Assembly: GCA_963787835.1 (NCBI GenBank)
Contig: CAWBEI010000002.1
Span: forward strand, 1,120,001 to 1,184,000
Origin: Ignavibacteriota bacterium
GTDB lineage: Bacteria > Bacteroidota > Ignavibacteria > Palsa-1295
Length of the DNA stretch: 64,000 nucleotides
Reading direction: 5' to 3'
A program made the translations under genes and the position numbers. The notes under the pieces are model-generated. The model ran no database searches. It was not told the origin of the DNA and worked only from the letters and a program-made list of their open reading frames with translations. Of this stretch, positions 41,689-56,717 are shown piece after piece; the stretch's first letter is position 1; every line of letters begins with the position of its first letter.

Positions 41689-43884
41689 TTAATTCTTACC
41701 AAATACATCCAGAAAATCGGTCCCAGCCCGCATATCCTGGTCATTGTTGGCGATGATCCAACCTTCGGCAAGCTGCTGATCGACGAGGCCATCGATGAAC
41801 CGGCTTGGCTTGGAAAGCACAATGCCGGATTCGCGATCGTACAAATTTGTCGGATAGGTAATGATGAGATGTTCCTTAGCGCGCGTGGCTGCAACGTACG
41901 TCAACCGGCGCTCTTCTTCCAGATCTTCCGGGTCTCGCGCGGCATGAACGGATGGGAACCTGCCATCGAGGCAGTTGGTGATGATGACGGTGTTCCATTC
42001 CAGTCCCTTTGCAGAATGGATCGTGCTTAGCGTGAGAATTTCATCATCGCGCGTGCCTTCTTCCACATCGGTCATGGAGTCCGTTGGAGGGTCGAGCGAA
42101 AGATCGGAGAGAAGGGATGTTAACGAGCGATAGCGTTCTGTGATAAGCTGAAATGTTTCAATATCCTTCTCTCGCTTTTGATGATCGTCGTATTTTTTGC
42201 GAAGGATGGGTTTGTAATATTCGATGAGATGCTCCATTTTTTCTGGCGGAGTCAGCTTCTCGTTCGAAACAAACTTTAGCGTGCTAAAAAGGTTAACTAA
42301 ATTCTGGGGCATTTTGGAAAATTCGAATGGAGGTGGCACAGTACCCTCCATTACAGCATCGCTGAATTTGCCGAATGACACACGCCCATCCCCAATATCA
42401 TTGACGATCTTCTCCGCCGTCTTCGGGCCAATGCCATCATGTAAAAGCAAAATTCGATACCAGCTTACCGCATCTTTCGGATTTTGTATCACGCGCAGCA
42501 TGGCCGTGAGATCTTTGACATGCGAAGTCTCGATAAACTTCATCCCGCCGAATTTCTGGAAGGGAATATTCGCTCGCTGTAATTCCAGTTCCAGATCGAA
42601 AGACATATATCCCGAGCGAAACAGCACCGCAATATCTTTCAGGCTCACACCCATCTCACGGTATTCAAGAATCTTCTCGACTACATAAAGCGATTGCTGC
42701 GCCTCATTCTCCGCACAAACTATTTGCGGCATTTCGCCAAGTTCGTGCCGTGAGTAGAGCGTTTTCTCATACCGCTTGACCGCCATAGAGATGACGTGAT
42801 TTGTCAGCGTGAGTATCGGCTGTGTGGAACGAAAATTCTCTTCGAGTGGAATCACCTTCGCGCCAGGGTATTGCTTCGGGAATTCGAAGATATTCTCCAC
42901 TTCCGCTCCGCGAAAACGGTAGATGGATTGAGCATCATCACCAACGACCATCACATTCGGGCCAACCACCCCCCGCCCCTCGCCTTGAAAAGTCGGGGGA
43001 GACTGCGGGATTTGTTCCCCCTCCTTAAGAAGGAGTGGGTTAGGGGGTGGTAGAGCCAGCAGCTCGACGATCCGTGCTTGCAAACGATTCACATCCTGAT
43101 ACTCATCTACCATGATATAACGGTAGCGTTGGTTCAGCGTTTGCCTAACCTTCTCATTTTGTTCGAGAAGCAGTACAAGATTGGTCAGCAGATCGTCATA
43201 GTCCATTGCGTTAGACTTGCGCTTGTATGCATGATACCCGTGTGCAAGTCGGAGAATATCCGGCAGATCTTCGATGAAATGAGGGAAATCGTTCTCGATG
43301 ACATCTTCGAGTGCGATGAGTTTGTTGACCGCGAGCGAGAACATTGCGCCGAGCGTAGTCTTGCGAGGGAACCGGCGGCGCGCGGTTGCAAGCCCCATTT
43401 GCGTTCGAAGCAAATTGATGGCATCGTGCGAATCGCTCTGATCGAGAATGGTAAAATCATTATTGAATCCGATCAGGCTGGCATAATGACGAAGCGTAAG
43501 ATTGGCAAACGAATGGAATGTACCGCCCGCGACATTCTCTGCTGAGCGGTCATGCAACAGCGCGGAAGCGCGCCGAAGCATTTCCTGCGCGGCACGGCGC
43601 GTAAAGGTAAGAAGAAGAATGGATTTCGGATCGATGCCCTGTTCAACTAATCTGGCCACACGATACGTAAGCGTTCGCGTCTTGCCCGTCCCCGCGCCTG
43701 CGATCACAAGCGCAGGACCATCCTTATGTTTTACAGCTTCGAATTGCGCGGCATTTAATTCCTGCTCGTAGCGCACCTTGAACCGCGATTCATCGACGAA
43801 CGCAGCATCGGCCGCACGCTTTAATACGAAGCGTTTCGGAGCAATGGCAGGAGTTGTTGTGCTGATGGGCACCTGTTCGGGCAT
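41689..43884 (-). CDS. UvrD/PcrA-family ATP-dependent DNA helicase
   Basis: AGAGTGKT, TFH, DEYQD, VGDDAQSIYRFRG, NFRS, TIHSAKGLEW, EERRL.YVA.TRA. Confidence 0.96.
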   Translation of the reverse strand: MPEQVPISTTTPAIAPKRFVLKRAADAAFVDESRFKVRYEQELNAAQFEAVKHKDGPALVIAGAGTGKTRTLTYRVARLVEQGIDPKSILLLTFTRRAAQEMLRRASALLHDRSAENVAGGTFHSFANLTLRHYASLIGFNNDFTILDQSDSHDAINLLRTQMGLATARRRFPRKTTLGAMFSLAVNKLIALEDVIENDFPHFIEDLPDILRLAHGYHAYKRKSNAMDYDDLLTNLVLLLEQNEKVRQTLNQRYRYIMVDEYQDVNRLQARIVELLALPPPNPLLLKEGEQIPQSPPTFQGEGRGVVGPNVMVVGDDAQSIYRFRGAEVENIFEFPKQYPGAKVIPLEENFRSTQPILTLTNHVISMAVKRYEKTLYSRHELGEMPQIVCAENEAQQSLYVVEKILEYREMGVSLKDIAVLFRSGYMSFDLELELQRANIPFQKFGGMKFIETSHVKDLTAMLRVIQNPKDAVSWYRILLLHDGIGPKTAEKIVNDIGDGRVSFGKFSDAVMEGTVPPPFEFSKMPQNLVNLFSTLKFVSNEKLTPPEKMEHLIEYYKPILRKKYDDHQKREKDIETFQLITERYRSLTSLLSDLSLDPPTDSMTDVEEGTRDDEILTLSTIHSAKGLEWNTVIITNCLDGRFPSVHAARDPEDLEEERRLTYVAATRAKEHLIITYPTNLYDRESGIVLSKPSRFIDGLVDQQLAEGWIIANNDQDMRAGTDFLDVFGKN
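42965..43051. repeat. In-frame palindromic doublet (87 bp) inside the helicase gene
   Basis: accaccccccgcccctcgcc...ggggga / tccccctccttaagaaggagtgggttagggggtggt; encodes PPPNPLLLKEGEQIPQSPPTFQGEGRGVV. Confidence 0.8.
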
Positions 43885-47568: not shown

Positions 47569-50267
47569 TGACCCCTCACCCAACCTCTCCCCCAAGGGGG
47601 AGAGTAGTAGAAATGGTCGGTCAATGGCGTGATTACCGGCGTGATGACACGCGGATGGGTGTGCAATCGCTTCCACGAAAAAGTGGAAAACTCGAACAGC
47701 GGTGGTCCATTCATTTAGGCGGAAGCTTTCAGGAGGTTGAGCCAGTGCCGGATGGCTCGGGCGATATTCTCATGGCCGATGCCGGCGGAATTCAGCGCGT
47801 AACAGTTGAGGGAGAATTCCGCTGGAGAACCATGCCATTCGGTGCACACTGGATCGCGGGTGTGTTCGATCTGGATGCGGATGGTCATTTTGAAATTTTG
47901 ACAAGCAATGGGCGGGAAGTAATTATTCTCTCAGCAGAAAAAGGTGAATTTCTCTTCCGTGATACCGTAGGGCCGCCATTCTCGTATGGAACGTATGCAC
48001 CGATGTTCCAGGTGCATTCTTTTTTCAGTAAGGGAATGCAGATTCTCGTACCATGTTTCTCTAATAAGGAAGTGTTGATGTACGATTGCTCCAATGGAGC
48101 AAAAAATACTTGCATTCTTCATCGGTTGTGGATGGATGATAGTTACCACCCCTCCATTGTGATTGGAGATGTCAATAATGATGGGATCGATGAGATCGTG
48201 ATCGCAAGATTGGGTGGAGTATATGTGTTCGAGGCAAATTCCGGCAAAATGATCTCGCAGACGATCTGGAGATCCGATGAAGAACGCAGACGTAACTACG
48301 GGCATTTCGAACTTGCAGACATCAATGGCGATGGAAACCTTGAAGCGATCATCCTGAGTGATAAAGTAACGCGGCATATCGCCGTGCTTGGCAATGATGG
48401 ACGCGGGAATTTTCAGCCATTATGGGACCGGCTTATCGAGCATATTTATCCCAATGATACAACCGAGCTTCGCTACACCACTAACTCCATCCGGGATTTC
48501 GATGGCGATGGGAAGCTCGAAATAGCCGTCAGTATTTTCAATGAGCAGAAGGATGATCGATGGCATACGGAAGTTCTGCGCGCCGAAACTGGGGAACGTA
48601 TTCTCGATCTGCCGGATCAATATTTGCGCGGAGTGCAAGACGTAAATGGGGATGGCAAGCCGGAGCTTTGTCTAAGCTACGAACCAGCGCGAGGACTGCA
48701 ACAGCACTCACGACTGTCAATTTATTCTCCAAAAGATCAATCAATAATTTGGGAATGCGAGAATGCACGTTTCGCCGAGCGAGCCGTGCATCCTAATGGG
48801 AAGTATTCCGAATTCAAGCCGGATGTGTTCGCTTCGCATGAAATTTGGAGCAATGAAAAAGGCGTCTACATTCAAACTGAGGAATTCGGGCTATGCATTC
48901 TGCAAAATAGTTTATCGCTACAATCACTTGGATATAAAGCCTCCCAAAGCTATCGTGTCGCATTGGCTGAACAAGATCGCGTTCTCATTTCGGAAGCAAA
49001 TGGCGATCTCGTTAAGATCACAAAGGATGGGCCGCAGCATTTTCATTCGTGCGGATACCATCTCACAACAGAAGCACATATTTCCGCAAGACCGGGCAGC
49101 ACGGCAACGGTAGCATCATGGAAGGGCGCGCGTTATCTCGCCGTACCGGATTTTTCAGGGAATGTTCAAGTATTAAAAAATGACGGTAATGGAGTTCCGA
49201 AATCTATCCCGAACATTCGCGGTCGCTCAAGGCTGGGATATGATGGAGTCTTTCACGCTGCGAGTATTATCGAAACGAATGATGGCCCGAGGCTTGTCAT
49301 AATAGATGATGAGGGCGTGTCGCATTCCCGGCTTTCACTTTATTGTCTCGAAGGCGAGCGTGTGCGTTCCTATGAGTTTCCTGACATGCCACCAAGTGTT
49401 CTTGGGAATCGTATTGGATGTTATGATTGGCTTTACTTCCAACATTCACGGGGCGAAGCATTATTCGCAAGCTTCTATCAATCGGCTTCGATGAACAGCG
49501 AATGCTCGCTGGCGTTCTTGCTTGAGACCGGAGAAATTTTGTGGCGTAAAGATCGCGTAGGCGTTGGTGATTATGGACGTGGCGTTGGTGCATGGGGAAC
49601 AAGCGGGCTTCGCAACAATATTGCGGTTTTTTGCGCGAAGGATACACTCTGTCATCTCGATCTGGAGACTGGAGAATTCGTTGGTGAACCAAAAGTGCTC
49701 ACGGAATATACCGCCGAAGCAATGAAATCCGTAAATAATTTGCCGGAACAAACACTTTCGACAAGTTCCTCGATCGAAGATCCGTTTACGGCGTATGGAA
49801 CTCCAATAATCAATGGCGATGATGAAATAATTGGTGGATGCTTTGGAGGGTTTGGTATTCTCGACAAATCGGGATTGCCGAAATGGTGGCACAGGGCCGT
49901 ATTTGGCGATGTGCTTTATCGCTTGCCAGGAATAGGTGATATTGATGGCGATGGGAAATTAGAGTTCGGGCAAGGACACGCCGATGGAACCTTCCGAATC
50001 TATGATTACGACACGGGCGAGCTTTGTGCTTCGCTCAATCTAAAAGCCATTTGTACCGATGTTCTGACATTGAATTCCCAATTTATTGTTGGTACAAACG
50101 ACGGAAGGCTTCTCTCTATCGGTTATGACGGCAAAGAGTTTGCTATTATAGACGAATTCGAAACTGGGTCAGCGATGGGTTCGCCCATCGCAGCGGATTT
50201 CGATGGCGATGGTGTCGCGGAGATATATGTTGTGACAGGTGACGGGAATTTACTGTGCTTTATGTAG
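47565..50267 (+). CDS. FG-GAP/VCBS-repeat beta-propeller protein, no clear signal peptide
   Basis: Multiple DxDGDG/DxNGDG..E motifs; start uncertain (47565 or 47613). Confidence 0.8.
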   Translation: MMTPHPTSPPRGRVVEMVGQWRDYRRDDTRMGVQSLPRKSGKLEQRWSIHLGGSFQEVEPVPDGSGDILMADAGGIQRVTVEGEFRWRTMPFGAHWIAGVFDLDADGHFEILTSNGREVIILSAEKGEFLFRDTVGPPFSYGTYAPMFQVHSFFSKGMQILVPCFSNKEVLMYDCSNGAKNTCILHRLWMDDSYHPSIVIGDVNNDGIDEIVIARLGGVYVFEANSGKMISQTIWRSDEERRRNYGHFELADINGDGNLEAIILSDKVTRHIAVLGNDGRGNFQPLWDRLIEHIYPNDTTELRYTTNSIRDFDGDGKLEIAVSIFNEQKDDRWHTEVLRAETGERILDLPDQYLRGVQDVNGDGKPELCLSYEPARGLQQHSRLSIYSPKDQSIIWECENARFAERAVHPNGKYSEFKPDVFASHEIWSNEKGVYIQTEEFGLCILQNSLSLQSLGYKASQSYRVALAEQDRVLISEANGDLVKITKDGPQHFHSCGYHLTTEAHISARPGSTATVASWKGARYLAVPDFSGNVQVLKNDGNGVPKSIPNIRGRSRLGYDGVFHAASIIETNDGPRLVIIDDEGVSHSRLSLYCLEGERVRSYEFPDMPPSVLGNRIGCYDWLYFQHSRGEALFASFYQSASMNSECSLAFLLETGEILWRKDRVGVGDYGRGVGAWGTSGLRNNIAVFCAKDTLCHLDLETGEFVGEPKVLTEYTAEAMKSVNNLPEQTLSTSSSIEDPFTAYGTPIINGDDEIIGGCFGGFGILDKSGLPKWWHRAVFGDVLYRLPGIGDIDGDGKLEFGQGHADGTFRIYDYDTGELCASLNLKAICTDVLTLNSQFIVGTNDGRLLSIGYDGKEFAIIDEFETGSAMGSPIAADFDGDGVAEIYVVTGDGNLLCFM
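47571..47604. repeat. Solo C-rich/G-rich palindrome (same family as the UvrD insert)
   Basis: acccctcacccaacctctcccccaagggggagag. Confidence 0.7.
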
Positions 50268-50322
50268 CGCAAACTTCAGTTTGCGACCCCGCAGGCAAGT
50301 CGCAAACTAAAGTTTGCGCTAC
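50264..50322. repeat. GTAG-type REP doublet between convergent genes
   Basis: GTAGCGCAAACTTCAGTTTGCGAC...GTCGCAAACTAAAGTTTGCGCTAC. Confidence 0.9.
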
Positions 50323-50325
50323 ATT

Positions 50326-51696
50326 TCACTTTGCCAAACGAATTCCGGTGAATTGCCAGCGTGATTCGGGTGGGAAGAAATTCCGGTACGTTGCGCGGAT
50401 GTGATCCTGTGGAGTTACGCAGGATCCGCCACGAAGTACCATTTGGTTGGACATAAACTTCCCATTGTATTCTCCAAGCGCGCCTTCGGCAACTTTATAT
50501 CCGGGGTAAGGCAGGTATGCGCTGCGGGTCCACTCCCAGGCATCGCCGAACATTTGTGTAGGATGTGTGGCGCAAACTTCAGTTTGCGACTTGGCGGGGT
50601 CGCAAACTGAAGTTTGCGCTACAACAGGATGATAATTTTCATCATCCAGAAAATTGCCTTCGATGGGAAGGTCTTTTGCGGCGAATTCCCATTCGAATTC
50701 GGTAGGTAGTCTTGCACCGCTCCAGGTTGCGAATGCATCGGCTTCGAAGTGGCTGATGTGGGTAACGGGTTCTGAATCTTCGACTTTGCGGAAGCCTTGC
50801 AGGGTCATTGCCCACCATTCGTTTTCGTACAGTTCCCAATATTTTGGGGCTTGCCAGTCATCGGATAGGCAATGTGCCCACCCATCGGAGAGCCAAAGTT
50901 TGGGATTGCTATACCCGCCATCGGCAATGAAATCTTTATACTCGCCATTCGTGATGAGTCGATTCGCCAGTTCAAAGGATTCAATATATTGCCGATGGCG
51001 TGGGCCTTCGTTATCGAAAGAAAAGTCATTGACCACACCCTGGCCCCCTCCTTCTTTAGGAGGGGGGAAAGCTCCGATCTCGATGAGGCCTTCATCGAAT
51101 GAGATCCAATGCAATGGGTGAACTTCTGAGGGAATGATCTCCCGCTGGCGATAGATAGGCCGAAGAGGATTCATCGCAAGAACCGTCTTGACATCCGTGA
51201 GCATCAGCTCCTGATGTTGCTGCTCGTGATTGATTCCCATGATGAGAAGAGGAGCTATTGCATGCAGCACATCACTCGCGCCCTCCGTAATAAGCCGCTC
51301 GATGGAGCGTTCGACATGCAAGCGATAGTTCCTGACTTCCGCAAGCGTCGGGCGCGACATCAGGCCGCGCATATCGCGCGGCGTGCGCGCACCGATGGTG
51401 TTGTAGTAGGAATTAAACAGATACCCGAACTTCGGATGGAACACACGATAGCCGCGCGCGTGCGGCGTAAGAATAAACGTCTCGAAGAACCAGGCGGTGT
51501 GGCCAAGCTGCCATTTGACGGGCGAGCACTCGGTGGAGGTTTGCACCACGCAATCCTCGATGGTAAGCGGTTCGCAGATGCGATCGGTGGTTTCGAGCAT
51601 GCGGAAGTAGCGGCGCAGAAGTTCCTCGCGCTCGATCTCCAGCGCATCGAACGCGGCGCTCGGCTTTCTCCGGTGGGTGAGGGTTTCGGTTTCCAT
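50326..51696 (-). CDS. egtB: Ergothioneine biosynthesis sulfoxide synthase EgtB (DinB + FGE-sulfatase domains)
   Basis: SP.KW.LGHT.WFFE.F, FNSYY, HEQQHQEL, RLPTE.EWE, EYNGKFM, YRNFF....RWQF.G.RL. Confidence 0.9.
   Translation of the reverse strand: METETLTHRRKPSAAFDALEIEREELLRRYFRMLETTDRICEPLTIEDCVVQTSTECSPVKWQLGHTAWFFETFILTPHARGYRVFHPKFGYLFNSYYNTIGARTPRDMRGLMSRPTLAEVRNYRLHVERSIERLITEGASDVLHAIAPLLIMGINHEQQHQELMLTDVKTVLAMNPLRPIYRQREIIPSEVHPLHWISFDEGLIEIGAFPPPKEGGGQGVVNDFSFDNEGPRHRQYIESFELANRLITNGEYKDFIADGGYSNPKLWLSDGWAHCLSDDWQAPKYWELYENEWWAMTLQGFRKVEDSEPVTHISHFEADAFATWSGARLPTEFEWEFAAKDLPIEGNFLDDENYHPVVAQTSVCDPAKSQTEVCATHPTQMFGDAWEWTRSAYLPYPGYKVAEGALGEYNGKFMSNQMVLRGGSCVTPQDHIRATYRNFFPPESRWQFTGIRLAK
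50567..50622. repeat. GTAG-type REP doublet inside egtB, frame preserved
   Basis: Near-identical to 50264-50322; encodes VAQTSVCDPAKSQTEVCAT. Confidence 0.9.
51032..51068. repeat. Solo C-rich/G-rich palindrome inside egtB, frame preserved
   Basis: accacaccctggccccctccttctttaggagggggga; encodes FPPPKEGGGQGVV. Confidence 0.8.
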
Positions 51697-51773: not shown

Positions 51774-54218
51774 TTATGCCGACACTTTCGTGGCTGTTTT
51801 TTCTTTTATCGAGAAATCAGCGTAGGTTTTTTGTGTAGCTTCACAGAGGCTTTCGAGCGTATCAGCTTTGAGCCCGATTGATGAGTCAAAGGATGTCAAA
51901 AGGTGCTCGGTTGCCAGTTCTTTACGAGTAAGAATCATTACCGGAATTACCTGGCTTGTCTTCCGAGCCTTCATTATTTTTCGTATCATTGTTCCGATAA
52001 GCCGTTTTTCTGAATCGTCGAGACTGGTTTTGAGTGTTGCGAAAAAGCAAGCCGCTTCAGGAAATTCCGACATTATAAATGCAATTTTATCAACATCCTC
52101 ATTCGTAAAATTATTAGTCGTCTTGCACTCTCCAAAAATAAGTCTTGTTTCTTCTCTCAAGTAGTTGTAGCGCATGAAGAGACCGAGATCAGCTTCTATT
52201 TCTTTCAGGGCATTCTCCTTCTTTGCTACAAAGCTCAACAAGGGAGTAGTAGACGCACCTGAATGAAGGAAGTGAGAGAAAAAGCGAAGCGTTAGCAGAA
52301 CTGTGTAGCTTCCGTGAGCCGCACCAGGCGACCGGAACGGTCCAAGCAACCTATACGACCATGGCAATGAGCCCGGCCGTTCATCCATGAGATTCAGCAA
52401 ACCCCCACAAACGGGACAAGGAACTTCCGACCCGATCTCGGTTCGCGGAAGCCACGTAGATTTTGAACAAGTTGTGCATTTGGGGGTTACACCTAGTTCA
52501 AGTATTCTTCTGTGAATCAGCTGTTTAAGAACATCGTCGGGTTCGTGAATTATTGAGTAGCCCGGAGCAATTTTGTTAAGTTGCTCGATCAACCCGGCAC
52601 GAGGAATGACACTAACTTCATATCCAAATTGGCGTTCCATTTGTGTTAACCTGGAATCAAGTTCCTTTATTTTTGAGGCCACGTTTCTGTTTTTTCGCAG
52701 CGCGATCCTTAACTCACTCCTAGGGCCTGCAAGGACACGCGTGGGTTTAACAGAATTGATGAGCATCGCAATGAGGTCATAATTTGCTAAAAGATTCAAG
52801 CCATAAATCCCGCCGAGTTGTGACAACATTGCTTCTGTTGTCTTGCCAGCATCAGAAAGTGCAATTTGCCATCCCTGTTCCTCAAGCCACTCTGTAAAAA
52901 TAGTTTTTGCATGCGGAATCATCATTCGAGCTGATTCTCCTCGCTGTCCAAGGAGCGTCAGTCCACGTTTACTAAATCGCCATTTAAATAGATCATAGCG
53001 GTCAATTGCCCTTACCATCTTCAATCCACCCTCTGGCATTACCTCAGCAAGCAACTCATCAGACCCTTCAATTCTCATTGAAATATCATTTGCAAACTGC
53101 TGTCTTGCCCATCCAAACAACTTAAACTCTGGTTGAAGTGGTGAGAACACGAAGGATTGTAAAGAAGAATGAACCCTTCGAGTTACTTCTCCACAACTCA
53201 ATGGTTTCACTTCAACGTGATCATATGGTCTAGCCCAATCGTCCCAAATTCTTGGCAGATGAGTGTGAACGACTTTAGCAGTTTCTCTGTCGTCAAACTT
53301 TTCATAGAACTCTTTGAATACTTCGAATTGAACGCTTCGCGCTTTCATTATATTGACTTCTTTTCGTCGAACCATATTGAAGAAGCTACCTACGAAGCTC
53401 GATTTTATCAACTCCTTACAGAAATCAACGACATTTGGATGCCTTGTCGATTGAATTGGGATTGGTGTAATGAACCAGCCAGCTGCTCTGAGATTCCAGT
53501 AATCAATAACATCACCGGCGTTCGATGCGTCTAACAAGAAAATTGCTCTTGTTTTATCATTCACATCAAGCAAAGGAGTAAATAGAGATGATATTCGTCG
53601 TGGAAAATATAGATCACTCGGTGCAAGTAGATCTACGTAATTCGAGAGATTGCAATCCAGTTTTTCGATTCTTAGGTCTTCTCCATAGCGAGACAACAAA
53701 GTTGATTCGATGTGAGGGGGCAAAGTTCCGAATACTGCAGAAAAAAATAAGCCGAAATTCTTCGGTATCTTAGGTATGCAAACACGTATCGGTTCACTTC
53801 TTATAAACTTAAACTCTGTATCCCGCCAATGATCAAGGATCTCAAAAAGGCCAGCACCATATTCAGGCGCACCGTAGCTCTTTACATGTTGCAATATTCC
53901 TGAATTTCTAATTACTCTCCTATTCGCGATAGTATTTACTCCTACGCTATCGAAATTAACCAAATAATCAGGGTCAAATGCATTAATAATACCATTAAAA
54001 AACTTTTTTGAAGTAGGTTTTAAAACTGGATGGCTCGAATAATTATCAGGTACTCGTTTGTAATTTGGGATTATGGGACATGCTGCACCACCCCAAAGAA
54101 ATGTTGCGGTTTCTATAGCCTCCTTCACCTGTTTATTTTTTTTGGGATCAACTATGAACCCAAACTTAAGAGGTCTTAGGGTTAAATCTATTGACGCGGT
54201 TACCAAATTTTCTTGCAT
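51774..54218 (-). CDS. Large hypothetical protein with Zn-ribbon and C-terminal PD-(D/E)xK-like motif
   Basis: Probable start ATG 54218 (814 aa); CTTC...CPVC; EIEAD...IFGECK; visibly AT-rich. Confidence 0.75.
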   Translation of the reverse strand: MQENLVTASIDLTLRPLKFGFIVDPKKNKQVKEAIETATFLWGGAACPIIPNYKRVPDNYSSHPVLKPTSKKFFNGIINAFDPDYLVNFDSVGVNTIANRRVIRNSGILQHVKSYGAPEYGAGLFEILDHWRDTEFKFIRSEPIRVCIPKIPKNFGLFFSAVFGTLPPHIESTLLSRYGEDLRIEKLDCNLSNYVDLLAPSDLYFPRRISSLFTPLLDVNDKTRAIFLLDASNAGDVIDYWNLRAAGWFITPIPIQSTRHPNVVDFCKELIKSSFVGSFFNMVRRKEVNIMKARSVQFEVFKEFYEKFDDRETAKVVHTHLPRIWDDWARPYDHVEVKPLSCGEVTRRVHSSLQSFVFSPLQPEFKLFGWARQQFANDISMRIEGSDELLAEVMPEGGLKMVRAIDRYDLFKWRFSKRGLTLLGQRGESARMMIPHAKTIFTEWLEEQGWQIALSDAGKTTEAMLSQLGGIYGLNLLANYDLIAMLINSVKPTRVLAGPRSELRIALRKNRNVASKIKELDSRLTQMERQFGYEVSVIPRAGLIEQLNKIAPGYSIIHEPDDVLKQLIHRRILELGVTPKCTTCSKSTWLPRTEIGSEVPCPVCGGLLNLMDERPGSLPWSYRLLGPFRSPGAAHGSYTVLLTLRFFSHFLHSGASTTPLLSFVAKKENALKEIEADLGLFMRYNYLREETRLIFGECKTTNNFTNEDVDKIAFIMSEFPEAACFFATLKTSLDDSEKRLIGTMIRKIMKARKTSQVIPVMILTRKELATEHLLTSFDSSIGLKADTLESLCEATQKTYADFSIKEKTATKVSA

Positions 54219-54265
54219 ACAAATCTGAAACACAATCCTGAAATGAATCATTAGCTCATCCCATG

Positions 54266-54419
54266 CCCACCAGGGGTTCCGCTTCGCTCCACACTTGGCT
54301 GTTGACATGTCACCCCCTTCGGGTTTTAGCATTCGAAGAACCACTAACCCCAGACTCACGTCCGGGGCTACAAATATGTCGTCCCTCCGGGACTGGTCGG
54401 GCTGGAAGCGCCGACCTAC
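54266..54419. repeat. Cluster of REP-like hairpins (two degenerate direct units plus a GTAG-ended hairpin)
   Basis: ...ggctgttgacatgtcacccccttcgggtt / ...ggggctacaaatatgtcgtccctccgggact / ggtcgggctggaagcgccgacctac. Confidence 0.6.
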
Positions 54420-54797
54420 GCGAAAAATAATTTCGGATTTCCCTTGCATTTGGGTTTTGGATGTGGTATATTAGGAAGTACATTAATAGGCACCAATTTC
54501 TATAAGAATAGCATTAACAATGGTTTTCATTATGAACGAGTTCTTTGGGAAAGCGGATTTTGGATATTTGTTGGAACAAATGGGCGAAATTGGCCTGGAA
54601 ACGAAGGTGGGTCGGGAACTCACAAGAAAGAAAAATGGCACCTATTTCTTGGAGAACAGCATTCTCGCATTAACTTATCCACAATTTGCATCAAAACGGA
54701 ACTAAGGAAAGAGCAAGATGCTTATTGAGCCGCCCAAAAGACCAGGATGGTCGGCCAGGTTGGTCGAAGGATGGTCGGGGCTAATCCAAAATTTATC

Positions 54798-55860: not shown

Positions 55861-56673
55861 ATGAGACTTAGCTTAGAAGACCTCCTGGCCTCCGGTGCTC
55901 ACTTTGGGCATCTCACACGCCGTTGGAACCCGAAGATGAAACCGTACATCTTCATGGAACGCAACGGAATTCACATCATCGATCTCAAGAAAACGCAAGA
56001 GCTTGCTGAAGAAGCGCTCGAAGCGGCGGAGCGATTGTCCGCAGAAGGAAAAAAATTCCTTTTCGTAGCGACCAAAAAGCAGCTTCGGGCCATGGTCAAA
56101 GAGGAAGCAGAACGCTCCGGCCAATTTTTTGCGATCGACCGCTGGTTGGGCGGCATGCTGACAAATTTCGCGACCATCCGCAAATCCCTCAAGCGCTTAC
56201 AGCAGATCGAAAAGATGGAAGAAGAAGGTTCCATCGAGAATTTTACGAAGCGCGAACGCCTCGATTATACCCGCGAGAAAGAGAAGCTTACGGGAACTCT
56301 GGGCGGAATCGTCGAGATGCGCGGTTTGCCTTCAGCGATGCTCATTATCGATATTAAGAAGGAGCATATCGCAGTCGAAGAGGCGCGCAAGCTTGGTATT
56401 CCGATCTTCGCGCTGGTCGATACGAATGTTGATCCCGATCTCGTGGATTATCCGATCCCGGCGAATGACGATGCGCTTCGTTCCGTTCAGCTTTTCGTTC
56501 ATGCGTTTGCCGACGCGATCAATAATGGCCGCGCAGCAGCTCGCGCTCGCAAGGTCGATGATGTAGCTACGGAAGGTCGTCCGGAACTCAATCTCGAACG
56601 CCGCGGACGCCGTGTGGAGATCGAAGCAAGCGACTTTATGCCGGTTCAGCCGGAACCCGCAACGGCAGCTTGA
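55861..56673 (+). CDS. rpsB: 30S ribosomal protein S2
   Basis: [34 protein letters not shown]. Confidence 0.98.
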
Positions 56674-56717
56674 CCTCTCCCCCCAACCCCTCTCCTTCGT
56701 AAGGAGAGGGGCTTTTT
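56673..56717 (+). repeat. C-rich/G-rich palindrome with U-tail after rpsB (possible terminator/attenuator)
   Basis: acctctccccccaacccctctccttcgtaaggagaggggcttttt. Confidence 0.7.

Follow-up and report, generated by a model that had tools for sequence, protein, structure and literature searches.

In a 64,000-nt window of an Ignavibacteriota genome (assembly GCA_963787835.1, contig CAWBEI010000002.1, positions 1,120,001 to 1,184,000; hereafter the window, in which the coordinates below are counted), a gene encoding a UvrD/PcrA-like helicase of superfamily 1A (SF1A) on the minus strand (41689..43884, 731 codons) carries an inverted doublet of short repeat units in the loop between helicase motifs II and III. 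We propose, with a probability of about 0.55, that the doublet arose when two BoxC/TMECO-type units were recently inserted in frame into a variable loop, such units being likely copied to other places after cutting by small DUF559 (Vsr-like) nucleases encoded by the genes that they flank. The genome under study (3.57 Mb) is termed G000 and its congeners G001 to G014, and L numbers denote loci.

Two repeat units occupy a helicase loop

The 731-residue helicase retained every motif and matched the Pfam families UvrD-helicase (E 8e-70) and UvrD_C. It also matched PcrA (1pjr, E 3e-93; Foldseek E 1e-44, indicating a PcrA fold), giving the protein both the SF1A motifs and the fold of UvrD/PcrA/Rep helicases; it scored below the pcrA, uvrD and rep equivalog cut-offs and reached no named equivalog. 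The gene remains under purifying selection, with a ratio of non-synonymous to synonymous substitution rates of 0.039 against G002 and the branch of G000 having accrued 89 synonymous changes and 3 non-synonymous ones.

A repeat search delimited the 87-bp doublet as two inverted arms (42965-43000 and 43016-43051) of 36 nt each and 72% complementarity, each arm consisting of a C-rich leader followed by a G/C hairpin. Unit 1, of subtype A1 (43016..43051, minus strand, 42.7 bits), has a C-rich leader and a CCTCCT hairpin, reads PPPNPLLLKEGE in sense and fits 9 of 10 triads of the triplex geometry described below. Unit 2, of subtype D (42964..43001, plus strand, 31.1 bits), has a decayed CCGCCT hairpin, reads SPPTFQGEGRGVV in antisense and failed that geometry; a 15-nt spacer (43001..43015) lies between them. 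The first-pass annotation had described a palindromic doublet inserted in frame into a UvrD/PcrA helicase between motifs II and III, which is right in position, frame and the 87-bp length, but the arms belong to two subtypes and do not form one palindrome, and the folding of the doublet by itself exceeded chance only modestly (z -2.09; 3 of 200 shuffles equally good).

The stretch that was replaced spans 42960..43053 (minus strand, 94 nt; residues 278-309, predicted coil). A contig of another study, 87-89% alike, skips these 94 nt and has 19 letters instead, and the sister genome G002 has a 7-residue loop; hence 32 residues replaced 7, and the net gain is 75 nt. The annotated insert of 87 bp (29 codons) is therefore correct as the length of the doublet but not as the gain, which comes to only 25 codons because the ancestral loop was lost. 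The alignment of the 15-nt spacer to G002 is too weak to say whether it is a remnant of that loop. As had been noted, UvrD-family proteins are short at this site, PcrA having 4 residues and the ancestral congener loop 7; M. tuberculosis UvrD1 has a naturally longer loop at the corresponding place.

The minus-strand translation across the doublet reads ...DEYQDVNRLQARIVELLAL-PPPNPLLLKEGEQIPQSPPTFQGEGRGVV-GPNVMVVGDDAQSIY... without a stop, from which we infer that the insert is translated as part of the helicase. An AlphaFold model (22 sequences; mean predicted local distance difference test score, pLDDT, of 77) placed residues 278-309 in a coil between the helix 267-277 and the motif III strand 310-316, with pLDDT below 50 at residues 285-306. 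This low-confidence coil, the purifying selection and the preserved frame agree with the earlier suggestion that the insert is probably tolerated in a loop.

The loop has been invaded repeatedly

The distance from DEYQD to QSIY was 63 residues in G000, 38 in 7 of 11 congeners and 43-57 in the other 4; outside the genus it was 38-39 in three other genera and 35 in nine other families. The ancestral 7-residue loop is present in G002, G001, G003, G004, G007, G008 and G009. In a tree built without the loop, G002 is the sister of G000 (support 100; 95% amino acid identity), and G001, with 38 residues, is nested among three lengthened species, the inner nodes of the G005/G011/G012/G001 clade being weak (51-80). 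Two of the lengthened loops hold other units, namely a D unit in G005, in the orientation opposite to that of G000, and a B unit in G012; those of G010 and G011 matched no unit profile, and helicase orthologs in G006, G013 and G014 were not found with the queries used. The short loop in 7 of 11 congeners including the sister, together with the other subtypes in two species, implies that the helicase loop was invaded repeatedly. The longer loop is thus not broadly shared among orthologs, and the aligned short-loop orthologs are free of repeat DNA, in keeping with the first-pass reading of the doublet as an insertion.

We also considered an assembly artefact, which was ruled out by the related units in the same loop of other genomes and by the frame-keeping empty relative. 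No contig from the best-matching DNA read runs spans the whole insert, and one identical piece enters it by 15 nt, which neither confirms nor denies it; these runs may themselves stem from the source sample.

Other loops are refilled in the same way. Among 14 genomes read, the TsaD loop held an A1 doublet in three, another subtype in three, a D unit in one and a GTAG-type palindrome in one, and was empty in six. The GatA and EgtB loops were similar, with unrelated repeat families occupying the same places.

Comparison with G002 covered 1.98 of its ~3.7 Mb and paired 37 of the 64 unit sites of G000, 26 of them internal to genes (sites 2 and 53 pair with one G002 locus as paralogs, and both are counted in the 26). 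Of these 26 sites, 9 had the same subtype in G002, 8 had another subtype in register and 9 were empty. Length differences were multiples of three at 23 of the 26 internal sites versus 6 of the 11 other sites. Units landed in all six reading frames, and the two frames that are closed by stops in the common loop occurred only with loop variants. At 8 of 10 sites empty in G002, the net gain was smaller than the unit, and no consistent adjacent direct repeat, as a target-site duplication would leave, was seen at unit sites. This pattern fits a selective filter on loops together with replacement during repair better than cut-and-paste transposition.

Several genes held further inserts. The NusB-like protein (G000:C2:916042-916195, L071) has three units in one loop, 141 nt more than in G002, and a different array in G006. 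The GatA loop of three congeners (L144, L146, L158) contains AT-rich tandem heptamer repeats that read ITNYELRITNE. The egtB gene carries an unrelated in-frame GTAG-type REP doublet (50567-50622, minus strand; VAQTSVCD...SQTEVCAT) with a second copy at 50264-50322; this unit also flanks a Y1 transposase gene at G000:C2:1501663-1502187 and has 28 pattern matches genome-wide.

The units form a dispersed family with the architecture of BoxC/PIT/TMECO repeats

In the 3.57-Mb genome, a structural detector recovered 62 units versus 0, 0 and 1 in three shuffled genomes, and a profile search found 77 units at E<=0.05, with no match at E<=0.1 in the reversed genome; the 77 are a lower bound, as the census misses most B2 units (6 found by pattern). 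By our own gene calls, 36 units fall within genes, 5 lie close to a gene end, 4 extend over one and 32 lie between genes, some of the last appearing to be coding when compared with G002. Pfam named 32 of the 33 host open reading frames (ORFs) scanned, including TsaD, NusB, a GatA-like amidase, CarA, biotin carboxylase and a class II ribonucleotide reductase; CoaBC, Ppx, MgsA and type IX secretion tails are among further hosts. The secretion tails, along with the gene content, suggest a lineage related to Bacteroidota. The units occupy 64 sites, 53 with a single unit and 11 with two or three, so that dispersed singles occur beside inverted hetero-pairs, as in BoxC. Subtype A1 is the commonest (28 of 77).

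The window holds three further copies, all of which the first-pass annotation had named. An A1 unit lies in frame in egtB (51031..51066, plus strand), where it reads PPPKEGGGQGVV; related units occur at this place in four congeners, none in three and a remnant-like loop in one. A subtype B unit (47572..47606, plus strand) sits where an oxidoreductase gene meets an FG-GAP gene; it falls within the longest ORF (start 47565), the start chosen by the gene caller lies 7 nt past it, and the G002 DNA compared contained no ortholog pair. A subtype E unit shared with G002 (56672..56713, plus strand) directly follows the stop codon of an rpsB-like gene.

The units consist of three blocks, the G-rich strand of which fits a purine intrastrand triplex. 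The class II geometry of such a triplex (a Y, an R and a mirror block) was satisfied by 60 of 77 units. With their own leaders, 55 of 61 units formed at least 8 of 9 triads, whereas shuffled leaders formed 1.5 (maximum 7). Stems best fitted leaders of their own subtype (0.64-1.0 versus mostly <0.5), subtypes A and E cross-fitting, which indicates at the sequence level that leader and stem co-vary.

The same three-block plan defines the BoxC/PIT/TMECO repeats, for which a purine intrastrand triplex was demonstrated in vitro by circular dichroism and nuclear magnetic resonance with TMECO (Holder et al. 2015, PMC4666352). Shared traits are a length of 35-50 nt, the order of C-rich, G-rich and G-rich blocks, singles beside inverted hetero-pairs, tens of copies and variability between strains. 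By the TMECO definition (CCCTCNCCC N3-6 GGGNGAGGG N3 GGGNGAGGG, with at most one mismatched pair), both helicase units lie 6 mismatches away and their stem sequences differ; the genome has one exact TMECO, and its B units deviate from the pattern by 0-6 mismatches. In K-12, every TMECO lies between genes (PMC4666352), unlike the units here, 36 of 77 of which lie within genes. We therefore read the units, from their sequences, as probable variants of one BoxC/PIT/TMECO superfamily and not as TMECO proper. The first-pass view of a family independent to this lineage is not supported, because the architecture is that of these published repeats and is found again next to DUF559 genes across many phyla. 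The exact A-type pattern is almost limited to the genus (all 14 congeners, 3 of 10 other members of the family and 0 of 16 other families), and an Rfam search of eight loci returned only sub-threshold matches to microRNA hairpins.

Individual units showed some further features. One D unit, close to where a UDP-glucose dehydrogenase gene starts (G000:C2:208762-208798), has the same stem-breaking change as the D unit of the helicase, which suggests copying of an already decayed unit. Small hairpins (GCATCG..CGATGC-type and CCGCTTCGC-type) are nested within units at G000:C2:912450, C2:1543526 and C4:215699 and in the tsaD gene of G002, either in the loop or between leader and stem; modules like them are also part of further repeat families in the genome. 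In the gene for an M1 peptidase (G000:C2:753095-753184, L067), an A1 doublet keeps the frame and has an in-frame stop in its spacer, either a split gene or a read error, and the frame of a coaBC-like gene (G000:C2:1366704-1366760) changes in a short stretch of G residues, ~20 nt away from an A2 unit, possibly through an assembly error. Elsewhere in the window, an 891-codon ORF (51774-54449, minus strand) had no Pfam or NCBIfam match.

DUF559 nuclease genes are bracketed by the units

To our knowledge, no substrate has been assigned to YcjD or DUF559 proteins. The first-pass annotation had guessed at a linked nuclease of the DUF559 or Vsr-like kind, and such genes are indeed bracketed by units in G000 and across the genus. 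Both DUF559 genes of G000 are so placed, with subtypes A2/A3 and B2. In the 15 genomes of the genus, units lay within 300 nt of 26 of 27 DUF559 hits and on both sides of 24, and the subtype follows the clade of the nuclease; the remaining hit, a distant one, lies in an 844-codon ORF. Subtype A1 flanks loci L046 and L049, and subtype D flanks L043, L053 and L054. In 12 aligned DUF559 proteins, acidic and histidine residues were invariant, and the closest structure was 3hrl, which has been grouped with Vsr in a classification that treats VSR/DUF559 as one nuclease group (PMC3424549). A Caulobacter DUF559 protein, VsrA, was reported to cause DNA damage in vivo (PMC12907096).

The pairing extends beyond the genus. 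A unit lay beside 36 of 65 DUF559 relatives outside it (3.7% when shuffled), and 16 of 29 phylum loci had a unit versus 0 of 29 far flanks. The scan of genome contigs for DUF559 relatives used a single protein as query, which biases it to one clade. In E. coli K-12, an exact TMECO lies ~170 nt downstream of ycjD and a decayed hairpin spans the stop codon of the gene; our count of the TMECO pattern in K-12 (23) equals that published (PMC4666352). The ycjD gene was found in 3378 of 5426 genomes. TMECO counts were 23, 28, 24, 11 and 13 in ycjD-positive E. coli chromosomes and 11, 13, 2, 4 and 1 in ycjD-negative ones (P 0.02), a family search having confirmed the absence of DUF559 in two of the latter five. 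For subtypes E and C, the two genomes with the cognate nuclease have the highest copy numbers (exact P 0.0095 each).

The following observations concern the placement of the cassettes. In an E. coli record (W09, L384), exact TMECO units lie on both sides of ycjD, one overlapping the annotated start. Of the phylum hits (L352-L375), 12 of 29 lie inside ORFs of ~800-1400 codons, 10 of the 12 being flanked by units, and whole cassettes may thus be read in frame in host genes. In L036 and L038 (G011 and G012), the cassette lies between two stretches resembling the end of cas1 and the start of cas2.

Proposed mechanism and points that weigh against it

We propose that the units would be mobilised by the DUF559 nucleases as follows. 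Each nuclease would recognise its own subtype as folded single-stranded DNA and cut, and host repair would then copy the unit into the break, with the loss of some target bases and without target duplication. A resident unit could be overwritten in register by another subtype via shared C/G runs, and selection would retain only in-frame insertions in tolerant loops, the encoded peptide being neutral baggage.

A number of results weigh against this proposal. No DUF559 gene with A1 or D flanks was found in G000, so the enzymes for both helicase units would have been lost or lie in a gap, and the D unit of the helicase, like the two other D copies, breaks the triplex geometry. By the C-rich detector, 29 of the 65 relatives outside the genus had no unit. 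Copy number did not follow the cognate nuclease for subtype D (P 0.26) and did so weakly for B2 (P 0.07), and the genome richest in D, G013 (85% complete), has no DUF559 hit. Subtype labels were set after inspection of the data, and as unit flanks are linked to the nuclease gene, the agreement between subtype and clade can be plain co-inheritance. Kin are not independent in either the genus or the E. coli counts, the TMECO counts of ycjD-positive and ycjD-negative chromosomes overlap at 11-13, and ycjD tracks phylogroup (PMC12817139), which confounds them. A stable triplex was not observed by Holder et al. either within duplex DNA or in living cells (PMC4666352). At the insertion sites, shared flank 5-mers were slightly in excess (11 of 64 sites versus 5.4 when shuffled, P 0.012), mostly non-adjacent, and flanks are only ~80% alike to G002, which makes the exact junctions hard to place and means that trimming after insertion could look like a loss of target bases.

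Alternative explanations

Spread of the units without any dedicated enzyme, in which replication halts at a triplex or hairpin, the unit is copied through template switching or ectopic recombination, and the DUF559 genes are Vsr-like repair genes or passengers among repeats, is in our view unlikely. Holder et al. tied TMECO to local instability and reported no mobility gene beside it (PMC4666352), and VsrA has been proposed to be a mismatch-repair enzyme (PMC12907096); A1 is also the commonest subtype despite the missing cognate gene in G000, and D counts are independent of nuclease presence. Against this account are the two-sided bracketing of 24 of 27 genus hits, with a separate subtype for each clade, the reach of the pairing from Bacteroidota to E. 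coli, and the expansion of E and C in genomes holding the matching gene. It is more doubtful still that the units are moved in trans by another enzyme encoded in the genome, either a Y1 (RAYT/IS200-type) transposase or an Ssn-type GIY-YIG nuclease. The genome has 10 Y1 and 7 GIY-YIG matches, GTAG REPs enter the same loops, and the inverted doublets resemble REPINs, but not one of the 17 is bracketed by C-leader units, two having a single A1 unit 263 and 479 nt away; such flanks of these genes as were inspected carry other palindromes (GTAG-type or TGTCATCCTGAGCG-type), and the units are without GTAG/CGTC tags.

Two further alternatives concern the history of the loop and not the enzyme. A single ancestral invasion of the helicase loop, with later overwriting giving rise to the subtypes and recombination with congeners restoring the short loop in G001 and G002, seems to us improbable. 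It would draw on the in-register subtype changes at 8 of 26 sites, on the weak inner nodes of the G005/G011/G012/G001 clade and on an identity to G002 that ranges over ~71-93% along the genome, as expected under recombination; against it stand the ancestral 7-residue loop in three separate lineages near G000 (G002, G001 and the contig of another study), the reversal of the G005 D unit relative to that of G000, and the full support for G000 and G002 as sisters in the loop-free tree. That the peptide was retained for a function, for instance as a protein-interaction loop, we regard as very improbable: the same loop is longer in 5 of 12 genus genomes read, yet its sequence, frame and length vary among species, the D unit is decaying and the model is disordered there. 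Recent repeated insertion, with the DUF559 nucleases as the likely agents, remains our preferred reading.

Relation to known repeat systems

In-frame palindromic insertions are known from the Rickettsia palindromic elements (RPE), which also enter conserved genes, appear neutral and are missing from orthologs, the facts of Ogata 2000 and 2002 being taken here from summaries in PMC10969869 and PMC2229807. Unlike RPE-1, which measures 105-150 bp and encodes a conserved peptide (PMC10969869, PMC2229807), the units here are ~36 nt long, fall in all six frames and have no sequence kinship to it, and in separating the two families the earlier annotation was right. Intragenic GTAG/CGTC REPs come closer, in that units and dimers encode 20-30 residues, heterodimers are common, and dimers occur in genes for UvrD/REP helicases and further repair proteins (Di Nocera et al. 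2013, PMC3733652). The present units differ in being tag-free, in having a third mirror block instead and in not flanking Y1 transposases: the units have no GTAG/CGTC end tag, and 0 of 9 Y1 places examined were bracketed. Intragenic REPs lie mostly at different sites between species (PMC3733652), whereas the same loop was repeatedly hit here. Nor do the units resemble miniature inverted-repeat transposable elements with terminal inverted repeats and target-site duplications, as 53 of 64 sites hold singles and no consistent adjacent duplication was seen. In-frame palindromic dimers, even in UvrD/REP helicases, are thus already published and the helicase insertion is a known kind of event; what is new is the recurrent invasion of the same loop and the in-register replacement of subtypes.

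For the nuclease partner, the Ssn nucleases with their NTS/SRM repeats (Chenal et al. 2025, PMC11893778) appear by analogy to be the best working precedent, since each is a small single-domain nuclease gene with its own hairpin repeats both flanking it and dispersed. Ssn has a GIY-YIG fold in contrast to the Vsr-like PD-(D/E)XK fold here, and the repeats differ. Cleavage was demonstrated for Ssn (PMC11893778), whereas cleavage of the units by DUF559 is our proposal, and the Ssn paper mentions neither DUF559 nor Vsr. None of the 7 GIY-YIG matches in G000 had a unit within 500 nt. Two small GIY-YIG genes (G000:C2:1221612 and C2:1256678) are bracketed by TGTCATCCTGAGCG-type palindromes, like Ssn-SRM pairs, so that three nuclease-repeat systems occur in the genome: GIY-YIG with TGTCATCCTGAGCG-type palindromes, RAYT-REP and the DUF559 units. 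Vsr-like homing endonucleases place the same nuclease group in selfish elements and offer a precedent for cut-and-copy (Dassa et al. 2009, PMC2677866). Unlike the units here, they carry separate DNA-binding parts and reside in introns or split inteins, and the hairpins that they have are translational elements placed upstream and are not dispersed (PMC2677866).

The BoxC/PIT/TMECO paper names no partner enzyme and no mobility gene alongside the repeat (PMC4666352). We found no paper joining DUF559 to these repeats in a search that left outside most subscription papers and the supplements of PMC4666352 and PMC3733652, the former of which has a flanking-gene table that may list ycjD. We suggest, tentatively and at rather less than even odds, that DUF559/YcjD and the BoxC-type triplex repeats form a third nuclease-repeat selfish class beside RAYT-REP and Ssn-SRM, in which each clade would read its own three-stranded unit, units would spread by transposase-free cut-and-copy and overwrite each other in register, and loops of essential proteins would act as revolving doors for peptides.

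Significance

BoxC/PIT/TMECO repeats have been known since the 1990s without a function or a spreading enzyme (PMC4666352), and the weight of the present finding lies in the repeat family and its likely nuclease partner, a pairing that is directly testable in E. coli K-12. If true, it would mean that a protein reading intrastrand triplex DNA exists in nature and that repeats have a transposase-free route of spread. To this the genus adds that nearly half of its units are coding. The loops of UvrD, TsaD, GatA and EgtB, refilled by different units, give a map of insertion-tolerant places in essential proteins, and their refilling shows the turnover of peptide loops between sister species.

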